This document shows, piece by piece, positions 3,705 through 52,169 of a stretch of DNA of 64,000 nt. The position numbers and the translations under genes were made by a program. The DNA is taken from the NCBI RefSeq assembly GCF_035084215.1, contig NC_090362.1, positions 5,580,001-5,644,000 on the forward strand, written 5' to 3'. Under the pieces are notes generated by a model. The model saw only the letters and a program-made list of their open reading frames with translations, made no database searches and had not been told where the DNA came from. The stretch comes from Heptranchias perlo. Its lineage: Eukaryota. Numbering within the stretch: the stretch's first letter is position 1; each line of letters starts with the position of its first letter.

Positions 3705-3908
3705 GAAATATATCGACGTTCCTTCATCGTCACTGGGTCAAAATCCTGGAACTCCCTTCCTAACAGCACTGTGGGAGAACCTTCACCACATGGACTGCAG
3801 TGGTTCAAGAAGGCGGCTCACCACCACCTTCTCAAGGGCAATTAGGGATGGGCAATAAATGCCGGCCTTGCCAGCGACGCCCACATCCCATGAACGAATA
3901 AAAAAAAA
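3705..3908 (+). mobile_element. 3' end of a non-LTR retrotransposon (LINE) with A-tail
   Basis: Near-identical to 53900-54100 and, inverted, ~50255-50420; ends ...cccacatcccatgaacgaataaaaaaaa. Confidence 0.7.
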
Positions 3909-4476
3909 TGGACATGCTTCTGCTAATGGAGCCCTGTCTCACCGCTGTTTTGTGAACAAGTGTTTGAAGCATAAGAACTGAAGAACAGGAAAAGCCAGCT
4001 ATACATATATTATCCAAACTGGCTTACAAGCATTCCAAATTAAAGGAGTTCTTACCATGGCCCAGGCTGTAAATTTATTATAAATGAATTTTTCTTTTCA
4101 GGTGTGTGAATTGCAGTCTTCCACCTTTACTGCTTTTAATGTTTGCTTTTGGCACTTCACTTGCTTATCAAAAAAATGCAGAAAATGCTGGAAACACTTA
4201 GCTGGTCAGGCAGTATGCGAAGAGAGGGAAACAGAGTTAATAGGCATGATTTTAACATGGCGGCAGAGGGTCAGCTGGAGGGTGAATAGTTGCCTGGGAA
4301 ACCCGGAAAAAAATTTGCGCATCGGTTTGAGCAATCATGACTGAATTGAAAGCGCTTAATTTTACTTCTGGGTTTCATGTCTCCAAGCTGCGCACCCTCA
4401 TGATGTGCTGTGAATTGGAATACTTAAAGGGCGAGTGCAAACATGAATTTTGAAGGAGAAAGGAGGAGCATCGAAA

Positions 4477-6270
4477 ATGCAGCATTATAGAGCCAAGCCA
4501 GCATCCCATTTCAGCAACGCTTCCCTTGAATTGCTACTGGCTGGTGTCAGAAGTAGGAGGGAAATCTTCTAACCAGTTGACAAGAGGAAGCGATCTGCTT
4601 CTGCCCCTAAGAAGGCATGGTTGAGGTGGCAGAGGAGATCAGTAACAGGAGCACAGTCCCCAGGTCATGGGTGCAACGCAGAAAGCAATTTAATGACCAG
4701 ATCAGGAAAAGTGAGTAAATTTGTTGATTCACCCACATCTTGTGAAAAGACCACCTCCCCCACTCTCACACTGTGTTGGCAAGCCTACTCCATCACATCA
4801 CTCCTGATACCCACTTATATCTCATCAACAACTTACCTTCACTTTCTGTGCACTTCCTCACCTCCCCATTTGTGAACTCACCACTCACCCCAATCCTGGT
4901 GCAATGTGATGAATCTGTCTGATAGTCACTCTCTGATGCATCTGTTTCATTGACAGCCTCACCCAAAGCAATGCATCCATCAGGTAAACACGTCACCTTC
5001 AGTCACTCACAGGTCTGTTCTTTCTCCCCTTGTAGGAGAAGGGAGCGCGAAATGCAAGGGAGAGGAGTAGAATTGGAGGGGGGGGGGGGGGGGGGGAGTC
5101 ACCACATATAGTATTATTGACAAATGCAGAGGAGGAGGCCATGGACATCAGTCGAACGGTTGCATGCCTGGACGTCAGAGTTGGAGAGACTGGCAACCCG
5201 CAGATGGCTGGTGACAGAACTTTAACATCCTTTACATAAATGATGAATTGATGTTATCAATGATTGAACTATTCTATACCTCAGTATGGTCACTGGAAAG
5301 ATTGTCGCTTCTCCGATGTCTTCCAGGACCTTCATGGATTGATGAAGAGGCAGCCGCTATGGAAGAAGGCAATTTCTCAGAGGAGCTCAATTCTTCTGAG
5401 GGCGCACCGTCACATGACATCCATCCATGCACCAGTGCAGATACTGGCACTAGGGGTCCTCTTAGGCAGATAGTTGGGTTGCCACCTGGTGATTCAACAC
5501 TCACAAGCGTACACGAGCAGACACTGGTGGAGAGTCCACATCGGGGGGGCGCACTCCTCTCCAAGCTCTGCTCAGCTGGACACAGATGCTGAATCCTGGA
5601 GAACATCATTGAGATTGAGAATGATAGAGGTACAGCTCCACCATTGCGAAGTAATGGAGAACAGGTCACGCACAGTCTCCACTATAGTGAAGAGGATGGA
5701 GGAGTCCAACTCCATCGCTAGTGGTGGTGTAGGTAAGTGCGGGAATGCCTTCAATGGAGAGAATGGCAGCCTCCATTAAGCTTCAAGCACGGCTTTCAAA
5801 TGAGTCCATGCAGGCCATAACAACCACTGTGCGGACTCTGGATACCAACATGTCTGCCGTCTTAAACAGGCAGACAGATACTTCAGCCGTGGCCTTAGAA
5901 CGCGGCACATCTGCTCACCAGCCTGCTGGCCAGCAGAGTGACGGGAGTGATATTGCCCTGGCCCGGGAGAGGGATGACGACGAAAGGGAACATGGAAGTG
6001 GGGACTCCACTGAAAGCGCTCTCACCTCTCACCCGTTGCCCCCCACTTCAATCAGTACCCGCAAGGCTGCCTCCTCTCCCGATGGCCGAGTCTGCCCCTG
6101 CACAGTCTTTGGCGAGGCCCTCAAGGGCTCCAAAACCCACAGGTCGTAGGCAGAGAGCATCTCATCAGTCAGGACATGAATCTGAGAAACCTGCCACTAT
6201 CTCTACTGAAGCCATAGGGGATGCACCACGTAGAAGCACTGGAAGAGGAAGGCTAAGGTTTTGTAATTCA
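4477..6270 (+). pseudogene. Harbinger Myb/SANT-like (trihelix) DNA-binding protein gene, spliced and disrupted
   Basis: ATG 4477 MQHYRAKPASHFSNASLELLLAGVRSRREIF* (in-frame stop), then frameshifted AW.EVAEEI...WVQRRKQFND..RSGK with donor gtgagt at 4711 and acceptor tgtag at 5035. Downstream acidic, coiled-coil and Pro-rich ORF pieces (5248-6333). Confidence 0.7.
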
Positions 6271-6563
6271 CCAAGGGTATGCACAAGGGTGTTTGATGGT
6301 ATGTCACGTTGTTTATTTATATTTATTTTTTAATCATGCCACATCACCGCTGCCATGATTGCTCATTCTTGAGTACCTTTTGTGAAATCACCCTTTCATG
6401 CGCTTCATCATGAATGCCAAGACATGATGCCACCCATTAGGTGCGTGTGCATATGCTTGGTTGAAAGACTGTTTTGTGCAAATAGAGGGGAGGTGGGGGG
6501 GGGGGGGGGGGGGTGCTGCTGGTGGTGGTGGTTGTTTCAGGTGGCCTGAGTAGTTCACATTCT

Positions 6564-7600
6564 TCAATTTACAGATCTCAATATGAGAACTTTGTTCGAG
6601 ATGAGTGAATCCCTGGCATCACGGGCAGCGATGTGCGCCGCTGCTCTGGCGATGGGTTCCCCGTCTTCATTTTCCTCCTCCTTGTCCTCCTCATTTTCAG
6701 TGTTGCCGGCAGATGAGGATGCTTCATGAGCGCATTCAAGCTCCTCCACCTGTAATCCTCTCTGCTCTGTGCAGGACGCAACACACTATTATTCTGCACA
6801 CCCTCGCTGGCAAGTACTGAAGGGCTCCCCCAGATCTATCCAGGCACATGAAGCGCATCTTCAGCATTCCTATGGCTTGTTCAATGACAGACCTGGTGGT
6901 CATATGGCTCTGGTTGTACCGTTGCTGTGCCTCGTTGGTGAGGTCCCTCACAGGTGTAATGTGCCACATCTGCAGGGGGTATCCCTTGTCTCCAAGCAGC
7001 CAGCCCATAAGTCTGTCTTGTGTGTGGAAGAGGTCTGGGATGTTGCACTCGTGCAAAATGAAGGAATCATGGCAGTTGCCAGAGAATCTGGCACACACCT
7101 GCAGAAACCTCTGGTGGTCACAAACCAGCTGGGCATTGATGGAGTAATATCCCTTTCGGTTTATGAACAGTCCTGGCTCATGTGGAAGCCTTTGGATTGC
7201 TACATGTGTGCAATCAATTGCGCCTGTACCGGTGGGAAGCCAGCCACAGAGTTGAAACCCTCTCAGTCTGGCTGATGTCGTCGCAGGGAAAGTTGGAGTA
7301 ATCGGATGCTCTGGCAAACAAGCCATCCGTCACCTATCATATACACTTACGTGCAGACGACTGGGAGACCCTGGAGATGTCACAGGTGACGCCTTGGAAG
7401 GATCCGGAGGCGAAAAAATTGAGGGCAGTGGTAATTTTACCTGCGATGGGCAATGCATGGCCACCAGGCCCAGCTGGGAGCAGCTCTTCATGAAGGACCG
7501 TGCAGATGTCTGCAACCACTTGACGACTCAATCTCAGCCTGCGTAGGCACTGCTCCTCAAAGAGGTCGAGGAAGCTCAGCTTCTGTCTGTAGACCCTCTC
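6564..7600 (-). pseudogene. Harbinger (HARBI1-like) DDE transposase, frameshifted
   Basis: Motifs GAIDCTHVAI, NRKGYYSINAQLVCD, HDSFIL, GWLLGDKGYPL, VIEQAIGMLKMRFMCLD in ORF 6736-7326; N-terminal HTH piece ALNFFASGSFQ...ISRVSQSS in ORF 7337-7531; acidic tail ending ARDARDSLI. Confidence 0.9.
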
Positions 7601-8327
7601 AGATGGGTAATGCCTCCTGCGACCTTAGCCCCTCCATCGGTCCCCTTTCTGCTCTTCTTCAGGTCCTTATTGCACACCTCTGTCTTGTGCACCTGCAGAT
7701 CCCAGAACTGCACTCCGTGCCTGCCATGGATGGTGATGCGTCTCCTCCTCAGATGTACTGTGAAATAGATCCATTGCGCCCCCCCCCATCCTGATCTTGT
7801 CAGTTCGAGGGGGTCCAAAACATAGGTAAATTTGTCTGAACACAAGAATTCTCAGTGTCAACAAAGAAATCTCAGTCTGAACACAAGGAACTCCCAACCA
7901 AAGGTTTGTCTGAGAGAATTGAGTGCCCGGCTGCGAAACCTCACCTTTTATTGAGATGTGTCATTCACCGGTTTAAACAGCCAAGTGAGCTTCGGCTACA
8001 ACTCGCCTCCGTTTCTATGGCATGTTTCAGAAGCCACGGAAGACACATTCAGTAGAAGTTAAATTCGATTCTGTTGCAGAATCCACAAAAATTTAATCAC
8101 CGTAAGCGTTTGAACTGCCTAAATTATCCCTTTAAATATTGGCCCACCGGCTTTAAGTGCTGGCAGTACTTCTGGATTTCTGTTACGCGCGCGCAAAATA
8201 ACACGCCTGTATCAAGCCCAGAAGTGGGCGTGTTGGAGATAGGATGCAGTCCCGCTCCGAAAATGTACTACTTTCACTGTCCATCCACCCCCAACCCATC
8301 CTGGTTTTGGGGGTTAAAATTACCCCC

Positions 8328-8465
8328 AATGTTTCAGGTCGATGACCTTTCATCAGAACTCATCGACATGAAGCATTAACTCCGTTTCTCTCTCCGTAGA
8401 TGCTGCCTGACCTGCTGAGTTTTTCTCGTATTTTCTGTTTTTATTTCAGACTTCCAGCATCCGCT
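8328..8465. mobile_element. Penelope-like retroelement end with hammerhead motif (inverted arrangement; other arm at ~4175-4241)
   Basis: Minus strand reads gagttCTGATGAaaggtcatcgacctGAAAcatt; it is followed on + by a second partial copy in opposite orientation (tcatcgacatgaagcattaactccgtttctctctccgtagatgctgcctgacctgctgag). Confidence 0.65.
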
Positions 8466-11400
8466 GTATGTTGCTTATGCTTATCAAATAGTTTGATCCC
8501 AAGATCAACCTTTTGCGACCATTAAGTATCTGCACGCTTCTCATGCATCCAACATTTCAAAGCCAGGAGTGAACTTCTGATGCAATTAAAATGGAATGAC
8601 TTCCCTCCAGAAACTGCATAAGTTAGATAGTCCCCGCATTAATATCTCTAGATAGTATATTTATATTGCTTTAACTCACTTCTCCCCCCCCCACCCCACC
8701 CACAAAGACAAAATAATTCCTTTCAGAAAGCAGCTAACAGTTTTAGTTTAAATTCACATATCTAAAATTTCATATTAAAGAAGATCGATATTTTTACAGT
8801 TTGAAGCAAGATAGAACTCTGCTTTCAAAACAGGCTTCTCTTGTGGGATAGTGAGATTTTGAAGCTTGATAAAAGCTAAAATAAATATTTGTCCCATATG
8901 AAGGCAGTTACCTTATACGCACGCATCTCTTGAATTTTGATCTGCTGAACCAGAAATACAGCTTGTCTCAATGGGAGTGTTCCGTGCATATGGGCAAAGC
9001 TGCACTATTCCATTCGTGCATTTGTGTCAGCTATACAGCCCTGAAATATCAACTGTACCATTAACAGAATATCAGCCCCCATCCCTTCAATGAGTCAATA
9101 CCTTTACTAGGAAGAGAGGAAAGAATAAAATCGGTGGGAAAAAACAGGATGAAAGCTGTTCTTTTTCCGTACATCTTCCCTAATTTGTAGAAAGGCTGTC
9201 TGATTGTTTTGTGTCTTGTACTCTATGTAATGACACCCCTCCCCTCCATCAACAGAGAAGAAGGGAGCACATTTTCAGCAGCAGGGAGAGAGAAATTAAA
9301 AGTCCACAGCAAACATCAGAAATTAAAATTGTTCTGAGAAAAAAAGGATAAATTAAAAAGACGACATGATTTTTTTTTTCACTGTCCTGTTGCTTTAAAA
9401 AAGTCTGTGAAATTGTTCATTTTTTGGAACTGCAGTTTGCAGCTGGCTCTGCCCCTTTCCATCCTGCAGTGCAAGCCTTAGTTTTGTTAAGATTAAGAAT
9501 GTTAGAAAGATTTCAATCTTTGTTTTTCCTGCAAAAGCTAATTTTTCCTCAGTTATTTTCAATAGATTTATAACGAGACATGCCGAAGAACAAGAGAATG
9601 ACGACTTGTAACCTACTGGGTATATGGAAGCACATGCTGTCCTATATATGTATACTGGGATTTTTTGTTTTTGGGATATTGAGGTCCTCAGTTTTTGGGT
9701 CTGAACTGAACTGGAGTAATTGAGGGTAACTAACCTGAGTTCACAGACTGAGTGTCAGTTCAAATTATGAAATTATGACTGCTGGTCTTTTATTGTGGCC
9801 ACTTTAGAAGACTGGTTATGTAAATTATGTAAACAGTCTTTAGTTCGCGACATGGGATTGTCACACAGCAATTAGCACTTTTGATTTCATTACCCATAAC
9901 AGGGAATCAATAATTTAAAGTGGTTAAGGAGTTAATGTCGAGCGTAATTAAGGTAACTGGAGTGGTTATGCTGAGCATCGGAGAATGTAAATACTGTTGA
10001 TATCTAAGAAAACTACTTCAGTACAAGACATTCATTTTGACTAATGTAGTGCCTCCAAAATCTTGGGCGATTTAAGGTGGTCCTGCTTTGACTCAGCACT
10101 TGTGTACACTACTTATCATTTTAAATGAGATGAACAAATTATAATTCTGTCTTCCTCAACAGGATTGTGTTACATAGTAAGTAGTTACAATGGTAATAAT
10201 GTAATCAATCAACTAACTGCTTCTGCTTGTTTTATCAGAACATAGGAAATAGGAGCAGGAATAGGCCGAATGGCCCTCCGAGCCTTCTCCGCCATTCAGT
10301 CAGATCATGGTTGATCTTCCACCTCAACTCCACTTTCCTGCCTTATCCCCAATCAGATTTTCAATCCCTAAGGATATACATTTCCGAATTTTGGAAATCT
10401 TCCACTTGTATATTTAAACAGCATACTGGTGGTATGGTCACTTAAGGTAGCAATGGTAAAGAATGGGAAAACTTTTGTGCCTTCACGGATAATGTTTGAA
10501 AATTGGCCCTATACATTTTTAAATCAAAGAGGAATAGCCTAGACCCATTTAAGCTGAAATTTATTTGATAGAATTTATTTGTATTTGATTGGGCAAATCA
10601 TATTTATGACTTTAATTATATCATGATCTTTGTGCAACTTTTATTTCACATTAAATTGATTGCAGCAAGTTTTATAAGTCCACAGGATACAGTGTACCAT
10701 TGTTAAATACACAAAGAGTTAAAAAATAGTAAATGGGAAGTTTGGAGAATTACGAAGTCACAGGATGATGTCTTGTTTTAAATCAATTCGAACTCTTTCA
10801 AATCACTGCTTCTTTAAATTTGCATACCGCAAGACTGAATCTGCTGTGGGTGTGGCTGACTCCAACTATCAAGGTTTTTTTCAAGACGTAATTAACCCCT
10901 TACTTCTATTCTCCCAAGTCATTAAGGTTGAATATTTACTAATCAAAATTTTTCTAAGTTGCAATGCTGAATGTAAATACATCATGCTGTATTAGAGTTT
11001 TTTCTAAGTTTCAGCACTCAAGCTGAGTGCCGCAAGTTTTGTTTTATGCTAATGATTTACTTGTTTTCAGCAGACATCAGAAGAAAATCATCAAATGTTA
11101 CAGCACGGTGGAGTAAGGCTTAGACTCTCAAAGGCTCAGTTTTAACCCATTCAGTGTCTTTTCTCAGCTTCCAAGACAAAGGTGCTCGGGGCGGGGGGGG
11201 GGGGGGGGGGGAGACATGGGAGTTACCTCCGAAAGTAATTGCAAGCAATCCTGTCTACTGTAAAACCATCAAGCTTTTCTGCTCAGTTTCCTCAAACTTT
11301 TCTGCTCAGTTTCCTCAAGAATTTTGAAGAAAAAATCATGGCTACATCTCTGCTTACTCAGAAACAACCTGAATTGCCAGATGTCCTCTCCGTGTCTCCT

Positions 11401-46564: not shown

Positions 46565-47180
46565 TCACTCAGGGATACCGGGGCTAAAAGAGTTAAATTA
46601 TGAGGACAGGTTGCACAGAGTTTAAGGGAGTTAAAGGATATGGGGACCGGGCAGGAAAGTGGAGTTGAGGTCGAAGATCAGCCATTATCTTATTGAATGG
46701 CAAAGCAGGCTCGAGGGGCCGTATGGCCTACTCCTGCTCCTATTTCTTATGTTCTTATGTAGACTAGGCTTGCATTCCCTTGAATATAGACAATTAAGGG
46801 GTGATCTAATTGAGGTGTTCAAGATGATTAAAGGAGTCAATAGGGTAGATAGAGAGAAACTATTTCCTTTGGTGGGAGAGTAGAGAACGATGGGGCATAA
46901 CCTTAAAATTAGAGCCAGGCCGTTCAGGGGTGATGTCAGGAAGCACTTCTTCACACAAAGGGGAGTGGAAATCTGGAACTCTCTCCCCCCAAAAAGCTGT
47001 TGAGGCTGGGGGTCAATTGAAAATTTCAAAACTGAGATTGATAGATTTTGGTTAGGCAAGGGTATTAAGGGTTACAGAACCAAGGTGGGTAAATGAAGCT
47101 AAGATACAGATCAGCCATGATCTAATTGAATGGCGGAACAGGCTCGAGGGGCTGAATGACCTCCTGTTCCTACGCTTCTA
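46565..47180 (+). mobile_element. CR1 LINE 3' end with a second CR1 tail nested inside
   Basis: RLGLHSLEYRQLRGDLIEVFKMIKG; two separate ggctcgagggg...gaatgg tails. Confidence 0.85.
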
Positions 47181-47407
47181 AAATTGGAGGCAGAAGCCCA
47201 AGGCCTACGATGTTCCTGAGTTGCTCCACATCATCACATGCCTCAATTTGGGTGGTGAGCATAAAGGGAGCGGGAGTCGGGTCACACACAGTGTTCTAGG
47301 CTCATTGGGTCCTCAAGTTCCATGGGGTGTCTGCTCCATATTGTGGCTTGAACAGCATTGGCCCTCCCAGTGTGCTGTGCACTCTTTGGTACTGGCGCTG
47401 AAGAGGA

Positions 47408-47570
47408 GGCTGTTAAAGGTATAACCTACACTCTTGTTAAAGGTATAACCTACAATCCTGTTAAAGGCATAACCTACACTTCTGTTAATCTACACTTCTG
47501 TTAAAGACATAACCTACACTTCTGTTAATCTACACTTCTGTTAAGGATATAAAATACACACCTTTAAAGA
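47408..47570 (+). repeat. Minisatellite, ~23-bp unit CTGTTAAAGGYATAACCTACACT
   Basis: Several tandem copies; related units resume at 48275-48332. Confidence 0.8.
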
Positions 47571-47574
47571 CTTA

Positions 47575-48274
47575 GGCCTGGAGTTTTTGCGCCCAGATCT
47601 GGACACAAACTAATTACGTGGCTTAAAAAAATCACGGTATTTTGGGCGTAAGTGAGTTACACGTGTAACTACATTACACCCAAGTCTCCTCGATCTTTTA
47701 TGGTTGTCTATCTATCCCTCCGTCTGAACGAATCTCGGCCCACAAAACTGTCCACGCTCCCAACCCTCAAATGAGAGTATCCTCCAATTGCGTTTGTTCG
47801 GAGGGTCTCTTCACATTGCGACCAGATTTTCAGGTGCAGCAGGAAAGAAAATCATTCTTATGATGATTTATAGCAATTTTATGTGCCCTTTTTAAAAATT
47901 TATCCTCACTGTATTTTCCGTTTCTTTTAATGCACTTTTATGGCATTAATATAAGTCATATTAAAATTGAAAAGCTTCCCCGATTGCAGGTCCTTAAACA
48001 TGCTGTGCCTGATGCGTACGAATGATGGTTAAATGAGTTGAAACTTAAAATTTTCATACTTAAAGAATAAATACATAGTGTGGGTTTGGGGCTTTCCTTG
48101 GGACCCGATTGCTTATGCTGATTTGTGGTGATTTACACCCATTTTAAGATCGGCTGTATTCGAAAGAGACTGGGAGGATACTTGGGTGTAACTTGACATC
48201 GGCAAAATGAACGAATATTGGGCGCATTTTCAGGTCTAACTTCCGGATTATGCCCATGGAAGGAACATCAGGCC
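47575..48274. mobile_element. Non-autonomous TIR element inserted in the minisatellite
   Basis: Ends ggcctggagtttt / ggaacatcaggcc form imperfect TIRs; minisatellite units on both sides. Confidence 0.5.
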
Positions 48275-50940
48275 ATCACCTGCACTCCCGCTAAAGGCAT
48301 CACCTGCACTCCTGTTCAATGCATAACCTACGTTACACAATAAAGGATGGGATATCTATTCAGAAGGAATATATATACGTATTTTTTTTACCAAATAAAA
48401 CTAATTTGGGGGAAACCTATGTTATATTTTCAATAATGTGGTAGATTAGTGGTGTATAAACAACAGACATCAGAATCACATGGTGCTGACTCTAGTAAAA
48501 GATTACGGGGTGCTAAATGAAACCAATTTGATGTGACCATGAACAGACTTATAGGTTGAAAGATGCGTAACTTTCAAAAGGGAATTGGATAAATACTTGA
48601 AGGGAAAATATTTACAGGGCTGTGGGGAAAGAGCTGGGGAATGGGACTAATTGGATAGCTCTTTCAAAGAGCCGGCACAGGCACGATGGGCTGAATGGCC
48701 TCCTCCTGTGCTGTACCTACGATGATAAGTGTGAGTTACAGTAGAGAGTGGCAAATGTTACAACAACCTTCATAGAGCGACAGTACCAGGAAAGAAAAGC
48801 TTTAGATATCGGTGGTATCATTTAGTTCTCAATGGTAGAGAACAACTCATTGATTGTTAGCCAACTTATCCTGTTAGTCATGTACCTTAAATTAACTCCT
48901 GGGCGGGAGCAGCTGTGCACATTATTTTCTACAGTGCTATACTCTCGCTGTCTATATTTATAGTGACATCCTTAGTTAACTATTAATGTGTTAACGTCAT
49001 CACTGAGTGGAAATCATTCTGTCTAGAGCTCAGAAGCTGAAGAAACCAGGGACCCATCAGTGCAAGGTTCCTGCACTGAACCAAGTTGAGTACAACACAT
49101 GACCCAATTTTCTCAAAACGGAAGTCGCCTCTAAGGTACTTAATGATGGAATAGGAAATCTCGTGAACTGCCAGGAGGGATTTCAAAGCGCAGTCGTGTC
49201 ACTCTCAATCTGGGAGCAAGCTGTGCACATATGGGCTTCTAAAGAAAGAGAAATCCTCATCATTAACACACAAACCTGGGGTAAAGTGATCAATCTAAAG
49301 CTGACAAATACAGGATCCCTTGATGTTTAAGGCATCAGTAATGAATTAATACTTCAAGCAAGAGATATGGTCCAGATTTTCCTCTTCACTGTCCAGACCT
49401 AAGAGCTCGTCACAAATACCATGGTGTGTTGCCAATGATTTTCCTTCCGTTTAAAATAAACGGTGGCTTTGCGGCCTAATTTGAGAAAGGCCCAACCTCC
49501 AGACACTGAAGAGGGAACTCTGAGCCTGTTCTCTTATTTGACGGAGCCAGATGTGCATTATCTAGACTAACGTCATCTGGTGAGAAATGGAAACCTGAAG
49601 AAATCTACATGACCCCAAAGCTTAAGTAATCCACATCTCCGGAACTAAACAAGGATCAGCATCACCTTCAAGGTCCCCGGATTCCCAACCTCTCTTCCCA
49701 TTACAGTTTCCAGCTGTTTCCGAGATGAGTCAAATGTTCTGGCCTCCATCGCTCTTCCTGCAGCATGTTCCAGCTGTTGACCACCCTCTGTGGGAAGAAA
49801 TACCTCCTGGCATCTGTCCTAAATCTGCTCTTCACCTGTGACCACTCGTCCTGTCTATCTGAAAGTATTGTTGCATGCCATCTTTCTCTATCCCATTAAG
49901 TGTCCCATATACCTTTGTAAGGTCCCCTCAGAGATGTTTAACTCACTTTAGGGCTGGATAGCCTCCTTTACTGGTGCATCAACACACCGCAGCCTGAAAA
50001 CTCCTGTTAATGGTATTAACGAGTGAGCACTTGACGTGTTGATAAGACATTCCTAAGCCCTCCCCCACATCCACCATCGTGAGGACAGTGGACGTGAGAA
50101 TCGGAGATGTGAGCACAGATCGTGGCCATGGCCCAGCACCCTACTCTCTCCCAATCACCCCTGGCAGTGCTCACTAGCGTCCCAGTTCAGCGCAGTTTCA
50201 CTCTGCCATACCTGACCAGTATTTTGCTTATTATTTGTTCCTGGCTGGCAAGGAGGGCATTTATTGCCCATCCTTAGTTGCCCTGAGAAGGTGGTGGTGG
50301 GCCTCCTTCTTGAACCACTGCAGCCCGTGTGCTTATGATGCTCCTGTGATGATGTTAGGGAGGGAGTTCCAGAATATTGACCCAGCAACAATGAAGGCAA
50401 GGTAATATCTTTCCAAGTCAGGATGCTCGGTGCCGTACAGGCGGTGGTGTTCCCAGTACGTTGCTGCTCCTGTCCTTCCTGGTGGTGGAGGTCGGAGGGG
50501 AGGGAGGTGCTGTTTAAGTAAGAAACTAATCGCCATAAAGTGGCTCTTTTTACATTGAAAACACCTCACCCATTTTAAAAGGAATATTACATGGTGATCA
50601 GAGAGTTACTCTAAAAAAATATATTCATGGTCATAATAATATGCAGCTTCTAAAGGAGAGAGCATTCCACCCATTCTAGTTGGAGAATAGTGACTGTCGG
50701 CAATGAGGTGTTAAAGGGAGTAGGGAGTAAGAGTTCTTCATTCCCTCATCAGCAAAATTTTGCACACAACTCATTAAATCACCCATTTTAAAATAAACAG
50801 ACAGGGAAAAATCCTGTAATTCATCACAAACTTGTTGTTCTACGGGTCAAATCAAGTGGTCCAATGTATCATTGGAAAAGAGATCCTGCAACACACAGGA
50901 ACATGACAAATAATAGACATCCGTGGGAATGGGCTCCTAC

Positions 50941-51030
50941 AGGGTTCTGATGGAAGGTCATCGAACTGAAACGTTAACTCTGCTTCTCTCGCCACAGATG
51001 CTGCCTGACCTGCTGAATGTTTTCCAGCAT
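50941..51030 (+). mobile_element. Penelope-like end with degenerate hammerhead motif (50941-50981)
   Basis: AGGGTT-CTGATGG-A-AGGTC-ATC-GAACT-GAAA-CG-TT-AACTCT; same family as 4175-4241/8328-8465. Confidence 0.65.
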
Positions 51031-52169
51031 ATATTTCCAGTTTTTAAAATTTCCTGCAAGTATCGTCTATGGAGCAGAACGGCCGAGCCTCGTCTTTAGT
51101 TCAGTGTTGGCGTGATATTTCTGCAGCGTAAAATGTTTCACTATGAGTTATGTCATTACACGTCTGGGCTGATTTTCCTCTTCATGAGCCTGGGCAGAAA
51201 TGATAGTCCGGGAGGAAGAATCACAAGGTCCATATTGGAGCCCACCATTTCAATTCCCAGATGGACGATCGGATGGTCTCTGTTGCCACCAGTGAGCCTC
51301 CCGCCCGATTGTCCTCTACGCCCACCTCCTTGGACAATCTCATGCCCAGGCCTGTAATCTGCTGTCTGTTGGCTTCTGTAAACGAATGAGGACAAAGTTC
51401 ACCAAACCCATCTCTGTGATGACAGAACTGGTTTTTAAAGATAATTTTGGACAAAAATACTCTGGTCTTTATTATAAATAATAACACATATTAATAATTT
51501 AATTTAGGAAGTACTTCAATCAGGGAAACTCGAGAGAAACTGTGTGAACTTTTCTCTCAGTTTAAATGGATATTTCTGCTAAGATCAACACACAATGAAC
51601 ACAGATCCTCCATGTTGTTTCTCTCTTTTCCACTTTGAGTTTACTTGAGACAATTAGCAGCCCACGTTGATGTGATTTTACTTCATTCCCCGAACGCACA
51701 AAGTTAGCGCTAGAACTTATTTATACTCAACCTGGGAGTAATTCCTGGCGACTAATGTCTTTTGCTCTCAAGCAGGTCAGAAGACGTGCGATTTATTGCT
51801 TTCACCGAGGGGGCTGTGCTTTGTATTAAAATCCAGCCTGCTCTTCAATCAATAAATGCAAAGCGCCACCTCCAGCCTTATTATTTGCAGCTTAAGTAAA
51901 TTTGTTAAGGGGCAGCCCAGGCCCCTAAGCCCCATCTGTACGGCTCTGACTCTCTTTTGTTGTAAAATAATTTACAGCAGCTCTGGTAGATTGATGAGTT
52001 TGATCAAGTGCCCTGATCCTGCCTGGGGGAGAAGGCAAGTCAGGAAGCTCGATCAATAATCACACTGATCCACATCCAGCCCATCGTTTACAGCCTGTGA
52101 TTTTATCCTACACTCAAAACTTATTATTGCACTCGTTTAAAAACATTGCGTCCTTTTCTTAACATGTCC

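Follow-up and report, generated by a model that had tools for sequence, protein, structure and literature searches.

A 64,000-nt stretch of the Heptranchias perlo genome (contig NC_090362.1, positions 5,580,001 to 5,644,000; the whole stretch is called the window here) contains a Harbinger DNA transposon that is inserted, with a 3-bp target duplication, at the predicted cleavage site of a hammerhead ribozyme motif belonging to a Penelope-like element. Searches of the 3.25-Gb genome revealed hundreds of independent Harbinger-type insertions at this one base of the ribozyme, a real, striking and apparently unreported hot spot. We think it likely that the hot spot arises from the fit of the ribozyme DNA to the ordinary extended target preference of Harbinger transposases. 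No account of a Harbinger hot spot in Penelope hammerheads was found in the portions of the literature searched, with subscription journals, Repbase notes and supplements outside the scope of that search.

The Harbinger element is bracketed by AAT duplications at 4239-4241 and 8328-8330. A first-pass annotation made from the sequence alone had proposed that removal of 4242-8327 together with one AAT rebuilds a hammerhead on the minus strand, and those coordinates hold: excision restores a minus-strand motif in which stems I and II fold, and the rebuilt 41-mer differs by 2 to 8 bases from 28 of 29 unselected copies of the host repeat and by 13 bases from the remaining one. Read along the minus strand, the rebuilt motif starts with the 5′ strand of stem I (8357-8361), CUGAUGA (8350-8356) and one unpaired A. 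Stem II follows, with 5 bp and a loop of 3 nt, then GAAA (8332-8335) and C (8331), and the motif ends with the duplicated triplet and the 3′ strand of stem I (4234-4238). By manual reading of 29 relatives picked by likeness to the right flank, the rebuilt site aligns without gaps over the junction in 24, the other 5 being single-arm copies. A contig from a sequencing run, which may be from the source sample, crosses the left junction with zero differences, so that this junction is not an assembly artefact. A run from a second organism covered 3904-4045 of the window, a segment short of the insertion. The features of the locus are listed below with the evidence for each.

4170 to 4241, minus strand: left part of the Penelope-like host; read along the ribozyme strand it lies beyond the cleavage site and includes the 3′ strand of stem I (arm comparison, alignment to relatives).
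4239 to 4241, plus strand: left copy of the AAT duplication (junction comparison).
4242 to 8327, no strand given: Harbinger DNA transposon, decayed, 4,086 bp (terminal repeats, transposase domain, relatives).
4242 to 4256, plus strand: left terminal inverted repeat, matching the right one at 11 of 15 bases (end comparison).
4477 to 4715, plus strand: putative first coding part of a Myb/SANT-like gene, frameshifted (homology to intact relatives).
6564 to 7660, minus strand: transposase gene with frameshifts and stops, outer limits approximate, with DDE_Tnp_4 within 6739-7329 (PF13359, E 7.2e-28).
8313 to 8327, minus strand: right terminal inverted repeat; its exact 15-mer has 4,800 copies genome-wide, compared to 128 for the control (genome-wide exact search).
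8328 to 8330, plus strand: right copy of the AAT duplication, corresponding to ribozyme positions 16.2, 16.1 and 17 (junction comparison, minimal-hammerhead model numbering).
8331 to 8361, minus strand: minimal hammerhead core, comprising the 5′ strand of stem I, CUGAUGA, the unpaired A, the 5-bp stem II, GAAA and C (fold, family comparison).
8362 to 8480, plus strand: second host arm, inverted and truncated, starting inside stem II and extending to the common family end (arm comparison, relatives).

The motif is a minimal hammerhead without loop III, numbered here according to the minimal-hammerhead model (PMC4209133). Since the duplicated triplet occupies positions 16.2, 16.1 and 17, the insertion starts directly past the predicted scissile nucleotide of the ribozyme strand. 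The duplicated ATT had been described as covering loop III as well as the UH cleavage site; it does cover the cleavage site, but there is no loop III. Similarly, stem I had been drawn as GAGTT paired with AACTC, a pairing that is present in the window, but stem I has only 4 bp in single-arm copies, and the fifth pair of the window copy is contributed by the junction of its two arms. Both core boxes (CUGANGA and GAAA) are exact in 23 of the 29 unselected copies by manual reading. In most copies positions 15.2 to 16.2 read CG, the palindrome for a dimeric helix III, and are followed by UU at the cleavage site; the window copy has an A at 16.2. The 10.1-11.1 pair is A-U in this repeat family and does not follow the G10.1-C11.1 rule, a pair described as highly conserved and not as invariant (PMC4209133).

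The motif had also been called a second hammerhead family, which did not survive a search of the window: Rfam and sequence checks found no other hammerhead family there, the one additional motif belonging to another copy of this repeat near 50944-51046. Rfam reported no family at threshold in the interrupted window. The copy at 50944-51046 is an uninterrupted, single-arm one, with its motif on the plus strand and a G at position 9 in the first core box.

The description of the host as an inverted, two-arm repeat of the Penelope pseudo-long terminal repeat (pseudo-LTR) type was borne out. The arms at 4170-4241 and 8375-8446 are 76% identical, and longer copies of the repeat continue into coding sequence resembling RVT_1 and GIY-YIG proteins. 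At one locus (L344), similarity to residues 427-845 of P0011, a protein that carries both RVT_1 and GIY-YIG, has an E value of 9e-61, lies on the strand of the motif and stops ~450 bp upstream of it. Penelope-type coding similarity lies within 1.5 kb in 8 of 30 anchor loci, one of which (L219) has a match on each strand and was counted once. Pfam searches with four decayed Penelope pieces taken alone gave nothing. Because the reverse transcriptase (RT) and GIY-YIG similarity runs upstream of the motif on the same strand, the host repeat is, judged from this homology, the 3′ pseudo-LTR of an endonuclease-positive (EN+) Penelope-like element. It shows 5′ truncation with an adjacent inverted copy, a known Penelope arrangement (PMC8557442). 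The repeat is very abundant: an 18-mer across the insertion site has 11,087 exact copies in the genome, and arithmetic from 10-mer counts, control and matrix data gives ~41,000-49,000 host arms genome-wide. An ungapped test across 272 kb of loci fetched for other purposes found no incidental host copies and is uninformative.

The motif shares with the minimal hammerheads of EN+ Penelope pseudo-LTRs a type I layout, both boxes, an unpaired base before stem II, a 4-bp stem I, and a palindromic 15.2-16.2 segment without helix III (PMC4209133). The hosts, too, are alike in having the inverted, 5′-truncated second copy (PMC8557442) and RT and GIY-YIG coding sequence upstream in longer copies. The present family differs from the published ribozymes in its 10.1-11.1 pair, in a U at position 17 and in a stem II of 5 bp; its cleavage is a prediction, and the window copy lacks the dimer palindrome at 16.2. 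For minimal hammerheads, single motifs were described as having no detectable cleavage and dimers as having a low level (PMC4209133), and the role of the ribozyme in Penelope elements is described as still open (PMC8557442, PMC11167929).

Four other copies (L064, L065, L072 and L076, all picked by likeness to the window) have exactly the inter-arm junction of the window (8355-8365), which suggests either that a template switch has recurred there or that these copies form a small subfamily of hairpins. Past the cleavage site, at 8380-8450 on the plus strand and 4175-4235 on the minus strand, there are two pyrimidine tracts, each with a terminal AG, like splice acceptors. Introns have been described in Penelope pseudo-LTRs.

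The assignment of the inserted element to Harbinger was likewise upheld by its transposase domain, by the AAT duplication and by the match of its termini. Its closest copies are ~76-86% identical. Three Harbinger gene pieces from the window, translated through their stops, gave no Pfam match, and for that reason intact relatives were used: PF13873 (Myb_DNA-bind_5) was found in all four intact homologous segments (E 8e-11 to 1e-6), which are 77-82% identical to the window at the DNA level. The traits of the PIF/Harbinger superfamily, namely a DDE transposase, a Myb/SANT-like gene (through the relatives), a 3-bp duplication, short terminal repeats and an extended palindromic preference, are thus all represented, and by these features the element is a decayed, full-length Harbinger. 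The right end of another element of the same family, 75% identical, lies at 30266-30370 on the minus strand of the window.

Insertions at the same ribozyme base were found by searches from both sides. Right junctions were sought genome-wide as a terminal repeat separated from a host anchor by any 0-30 bases, which gave 23 matches (control, 0), with 22 of the 23 falling on one position of 31. Twenty-one have one gap length; in another, also at the site, the C run is expanded; and the last, although shortened by a small deletion on its right side, has its left junction at the site. Two of the loci (L141 and L142) are a local duplication, which leaves 22 independent loci, the window's included. 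Left junctions, sought with a generic terminal pattern, gave 212 matches genome-wide (control, 0); of the 100 listed, manual reading placed 89 at the site, 5 at other positions of the repeat and 4 beyond the repeat, with 2 ambiguous, and 27 of 30 retrieved left junctions are within 1 base of the site. When an intact core was required to be followed, at a fixed position, by a terminal repeat, 141 matches were obtained, and the 100 listed were read manually as 93 of this family, 3 of sister variants, 1 of another hammerhead and 3 unrelated.

These insertions are diverse. The 29 distinct complete inserted elements, counted after dropping 4 loci retrieved twice, are 115 to 4,086 bp long, form 11 loose clusters and lie in both orientations, and the flanks beyond the repeat are unrelated among the interrupted loci. 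The two copies of the duplication differ by at most 1 base in 12 of 13 pairs, one copy often reading AAC and its partner AAT. Overlap of two lists covering the same range (95 and 63 rows, after 5 and 3 had been dropped, with 14 shared) gives a rough figure of 870 loci genome-wide, and 144 loci were observed directly in the range covered by both. Besides the window's own junction, 8 exact junctions were found against 0.010 expected, a ~780-fold excess over uniform insertion (336-1,534), which would be higher still if only the older host subtype was available. Chance had been offered as one explanation and was first suggested by the finding that 0 of 58 unselected ends lie in the repeat; the junction searches overturned it, and chance is excluded because independent insertions strike the same base repeatedly.

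Other details were seen among the junctions. Two two-arm hosts (L279:400-500 and G000:C1:60182423-60184176) apparently have a Harbinger-type insertion at the equivalent site in both arms. Several of the 100 listed left junctions have AAA as the left duplication in place of AAC or AAT, more than transitions alone would suggest. At G000:C5:121192882-121192925, a different hammerhead, in which stem II is closed by the usual G-C pair, has a terminal repeat directly past its cleavage triplet.

The target preference was examined in 88 unselected Harbinger ends (29 right, 29 left and 30 of mixed families). Alignment of the flanks of other copies had been suggested in the first-pass annotation, and it showed a shared, degenerate 13-bp palindrome, GASAY-HWD-RTSTC, alongside the excess found at the target by the junction searches. 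The right and left ends separately give the same matrix; the preference is weaker in the mixed-family ends, and its strength after decay is ~0.2-0.7 bit per position. The ribozyme site reads GAGTT-AAC-GTTTC. One half-site is the reverse complement of the core GAAAC, the other is the stem I strand, and the cleavage triplet is the 3-bp centre. The site had been called near-palindromic; only 2 of the 5 positions in its halves are reverse-complementary, but each half fits the degenerate consensus at 4 of 5. Of the 121 offsets along the repeat, the matrix scores the site highest, and among all positions of the window it puts it within the top 0.13%; it predicts that 65-86% of within-repeat insertions should be at the site. 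Its second-ranked position (+19) falls within the host anchor of the right-junction search and hence outside what that search covered. The insertion preference is thus likely to be one for a short, degenerate sequence to which the ribozyme conforms by coincidence.

A half-site control compared the ribozyme repeat with other DNA carrying the same right flank. All 62 junctions within 1 mismatch of the window's right junction were retrieved, and 30 have an exact 10-nt right flank together with a terminal repeat with at most 1 mismatch: 23 in the repeat (22 without the window; 18 by script and 5 reassigned by eye) and 7 outside it. The 10-mer flank has 47,126 copies in the genome, with 63-76% in the repeat, a share taken either from a reversed-pattern control or from the first 4 Mb of a contig, where 19 of 30 sites lie in the repeat. 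The resulting per-site ratio of repeat to non-ribozyme DNA is 1.0-1.8 (interval, 0.4-5.0), or ~1.7-3 if only the older subtype was available. According to the matrix, the left half-site alone should add 7-13-fold, and since the ratio is below this value, the ribozyme is struck no more often than its sequence warrants. Single-arm and two-arm hosts are struck alike, with two-arm hosts making up 5 of 23 junctions and 6 of 29 unselected copies. Register-exact insertions were also seen in two unrelated repeats, at 4 loci each.

Several points weigh against a purely sequence-based explanation. The matrix predicts a ~100-fold excess (bootstrap, 37-243; 36-309 with a decay correction) and so falls 3-8-fold short of the ~780-fold observed. 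It also penalises C at the third base of the triplet, yet the commonest target triplet ends in C; CpG decay at the edge of the duplication probably hides a preference for C, as the AAC/AAT pairs suggest, although this is not a full account. Finally, the half-site control has only 7 events outside the host, with one of its denominators coming from those first 4 Mb of a single contig. There is room for a modest added effect of structure, selection or tuning. By hand arithmetic, the matrix underestimates non-ribozyme half-sites as well, 3-4-fold.

The course of events that we favor starts with a Penelope-like element that left tens of thousands of 3′ stumps with the motif, often with an inverted second arm, in a genome where unselected Harbinger ends favor the degenerate palindrome. 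The conserved end of the core and the stem I strand together present two half-sites about the cleavage triplet. A complex of the transposase and the Myb-like protein would read this DNA sequence and make a staggered cut spanning the triplet, and the overlap with the RNA cleavage site would be a geometric by-product in which no RNA is involved. An insertion takes stem I away from the core and would be expected to abolish any cleavage in that copy.

The first-pass annotation had further proposed that this one Harbinger family prefers the abundant ribozyme repeat. A sequence preference does exist, but preference of a single family for the repeat is unsupported, because many families strike the site, none of the 88 unselected ends lies in the repeat, and non-ribozyme half-sites are struck alike per site. 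A broader form of this idea is that GAAA-C and the cleavage triplet, the invariant end of the hammerhead core, form a built-in Harbinger half-site, so that Harbinger bursts precisely kill Penelope ribozymes across animal genomes, with the preference tuned to the motif or kept by it; we consider this unlikely. If it were true, tuned targeting would be a new kind of conflict of transposon against transposon, with one class disarming another at its scissile bond.

Dedicated or co-evolved targeting, in which selection led Harbingers to recognise the conserved DNA of the ribozyme, a plentiful and harmless landing site, in the manner of Dada elements, appears quite improbable to us. It would account for the placement of nearly all in-repeat insertions on one base, for the 3-8-fold excess over the matrix, and for the 4 of 100 listed intact-core matches, read manually, in which sister or other hammerheads are struck at the same place; the target is also both abundant and conserved, the two constraints named for Dada (PMC3706591). 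The unselected ends nevertheless argue against it, as 0 of 88 lie in the repeat, and only 11 of the 4,800 exact ends adjoin the site with at most 1 mismatch in the flank; the ribozyme repeat receives at most a percent or two of insertions. In addition, insertions per site are about as frequent as in non-ribozyme DNA, a similar consensus has been reported for a zebrafish element (PMC3016246), and nothing like a guide copy of the target was found inside the inserted element (best match, 9 of 13).

We regard two further mechanisms as very unlikely. In the first, ribozyme stumps in transcripts are mildly harmful, and insertions that break the motif are preferentially kept. Such selection fits the parting of stem I from the core and an enrichment above the matrix prediction, but insertions elsewhere in the core or in stem II would be equally disruptive and are nearly absent, non-ribozyme half-sites are struck at a similar rate, and the activity reported for minimal hammerheads is low, without detectable cleavage by single motifs and little by dimers (PMC4209133). 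In the second, held to be just as improbable, the transposase is drawn by DNA structure or nicking, be it a cruciform of the inverted arms, local bendability or a nick made by the Penelope endonuclease. The window host does have inverted arms, two short perfect palindromes overlap the site, and the matrix under-predicts; however, two-arm hosts are not over-represented at junctions, and the duplications are of the normal 3 bp with intact ends. Spread of a single chance insertion as a composite, through retrotransposition or duplication, fits the one local duplication pair (L141/L142) and has next to no probability, being refuted by inserted elements that vary in family, length and orientation and by unrelated outer flanks.

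The interrupted copies differ from the repeat at large at one position of loop II, which lies 12 bases past the duplication and outside the 13-bp site. This marker is T in all 23 right-junction hosts, compared to 59% genome-wide (8,715 of 14,787; P ~1e-5 with the 22 independent loci), and by manual reading A occurs in 5 of the ~93 intact-core junctions among the matches listed. A first sample had given a T-type share of 24% (7 of 29), which proved unrepresentative, and the genome-wide value was used in its place when the subtype argument was recomputed. Divergence within types is 0.16 for T-type copies (7 copies) and 0.08 for A-type copies (22 copies). Because the interrupted copies are nearly all of one loop II subtype, the simplest reading is that Harbingers were mostly active before the A-type subfamily spread, and the Harbinger burst would then predate most of the spread of the younger host subtype.

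Compared with known systems, the element most resembles Harbinger3_DR of zebrafish and PIF/mPing, which likewise have a transposase and a Myb-like gene, short terminal repeats and a 3-bp duplication, are accompanied by many short non-autonomous relatives, and show an extended palindromic preference (PMC3016246, PMC2836001). Such preferences have been described as extending over 9 bp in plants and 15 bp in vertebrates (PMC2836001). The target consensus of Harbinger3_DR, AAACACCWGGTCTTT, matches ours at 4 of the 5 flank positions nearest the centre on each side (PMC3016246). The consensus here is looser, at 13 bp, its best match in one abundant repeat is the ribozyme cleavage site, and the hot spot is common to many families. 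Dada elements, found in U6, U1 and tRNA genes, offer another parallel, as DNA transposons at one exact position of a multicopy structured-RNA sequence (PMC3706591). They are, however, target-specific and make 6-7-bp duplications (PMC3706591), whereas here the duplication is 3 bp, the target is a motif of another transposon, and most copies lie outside it. The element therefore works like the known Harbinger target read-out, and the likeness to Dada is only in the outcome at this site.

The hot spot indicates that a loose preference combined with a very abundant repeat can mimic site-specific targeting, and a shared insertion point is thus no proof of shared ancestry when Harbingers are used as markers. 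Each interrupted copy is a ribozyme broken naturally at an identical position; such copies could be used to ask whether loss of the ribozyme is neutral, and to date Harbinger and Penelope families against each other.

Harbinger-type insertions also recur at single positions elsewhere among the right junctions. Four (L099, L285, L287 and L302) lie at one position of another repeat, which looks like a CR1/L2-type retrotransposon, and four or five (L110, L111, L117, L278 and probably L282) lie at one position of a third repeat.

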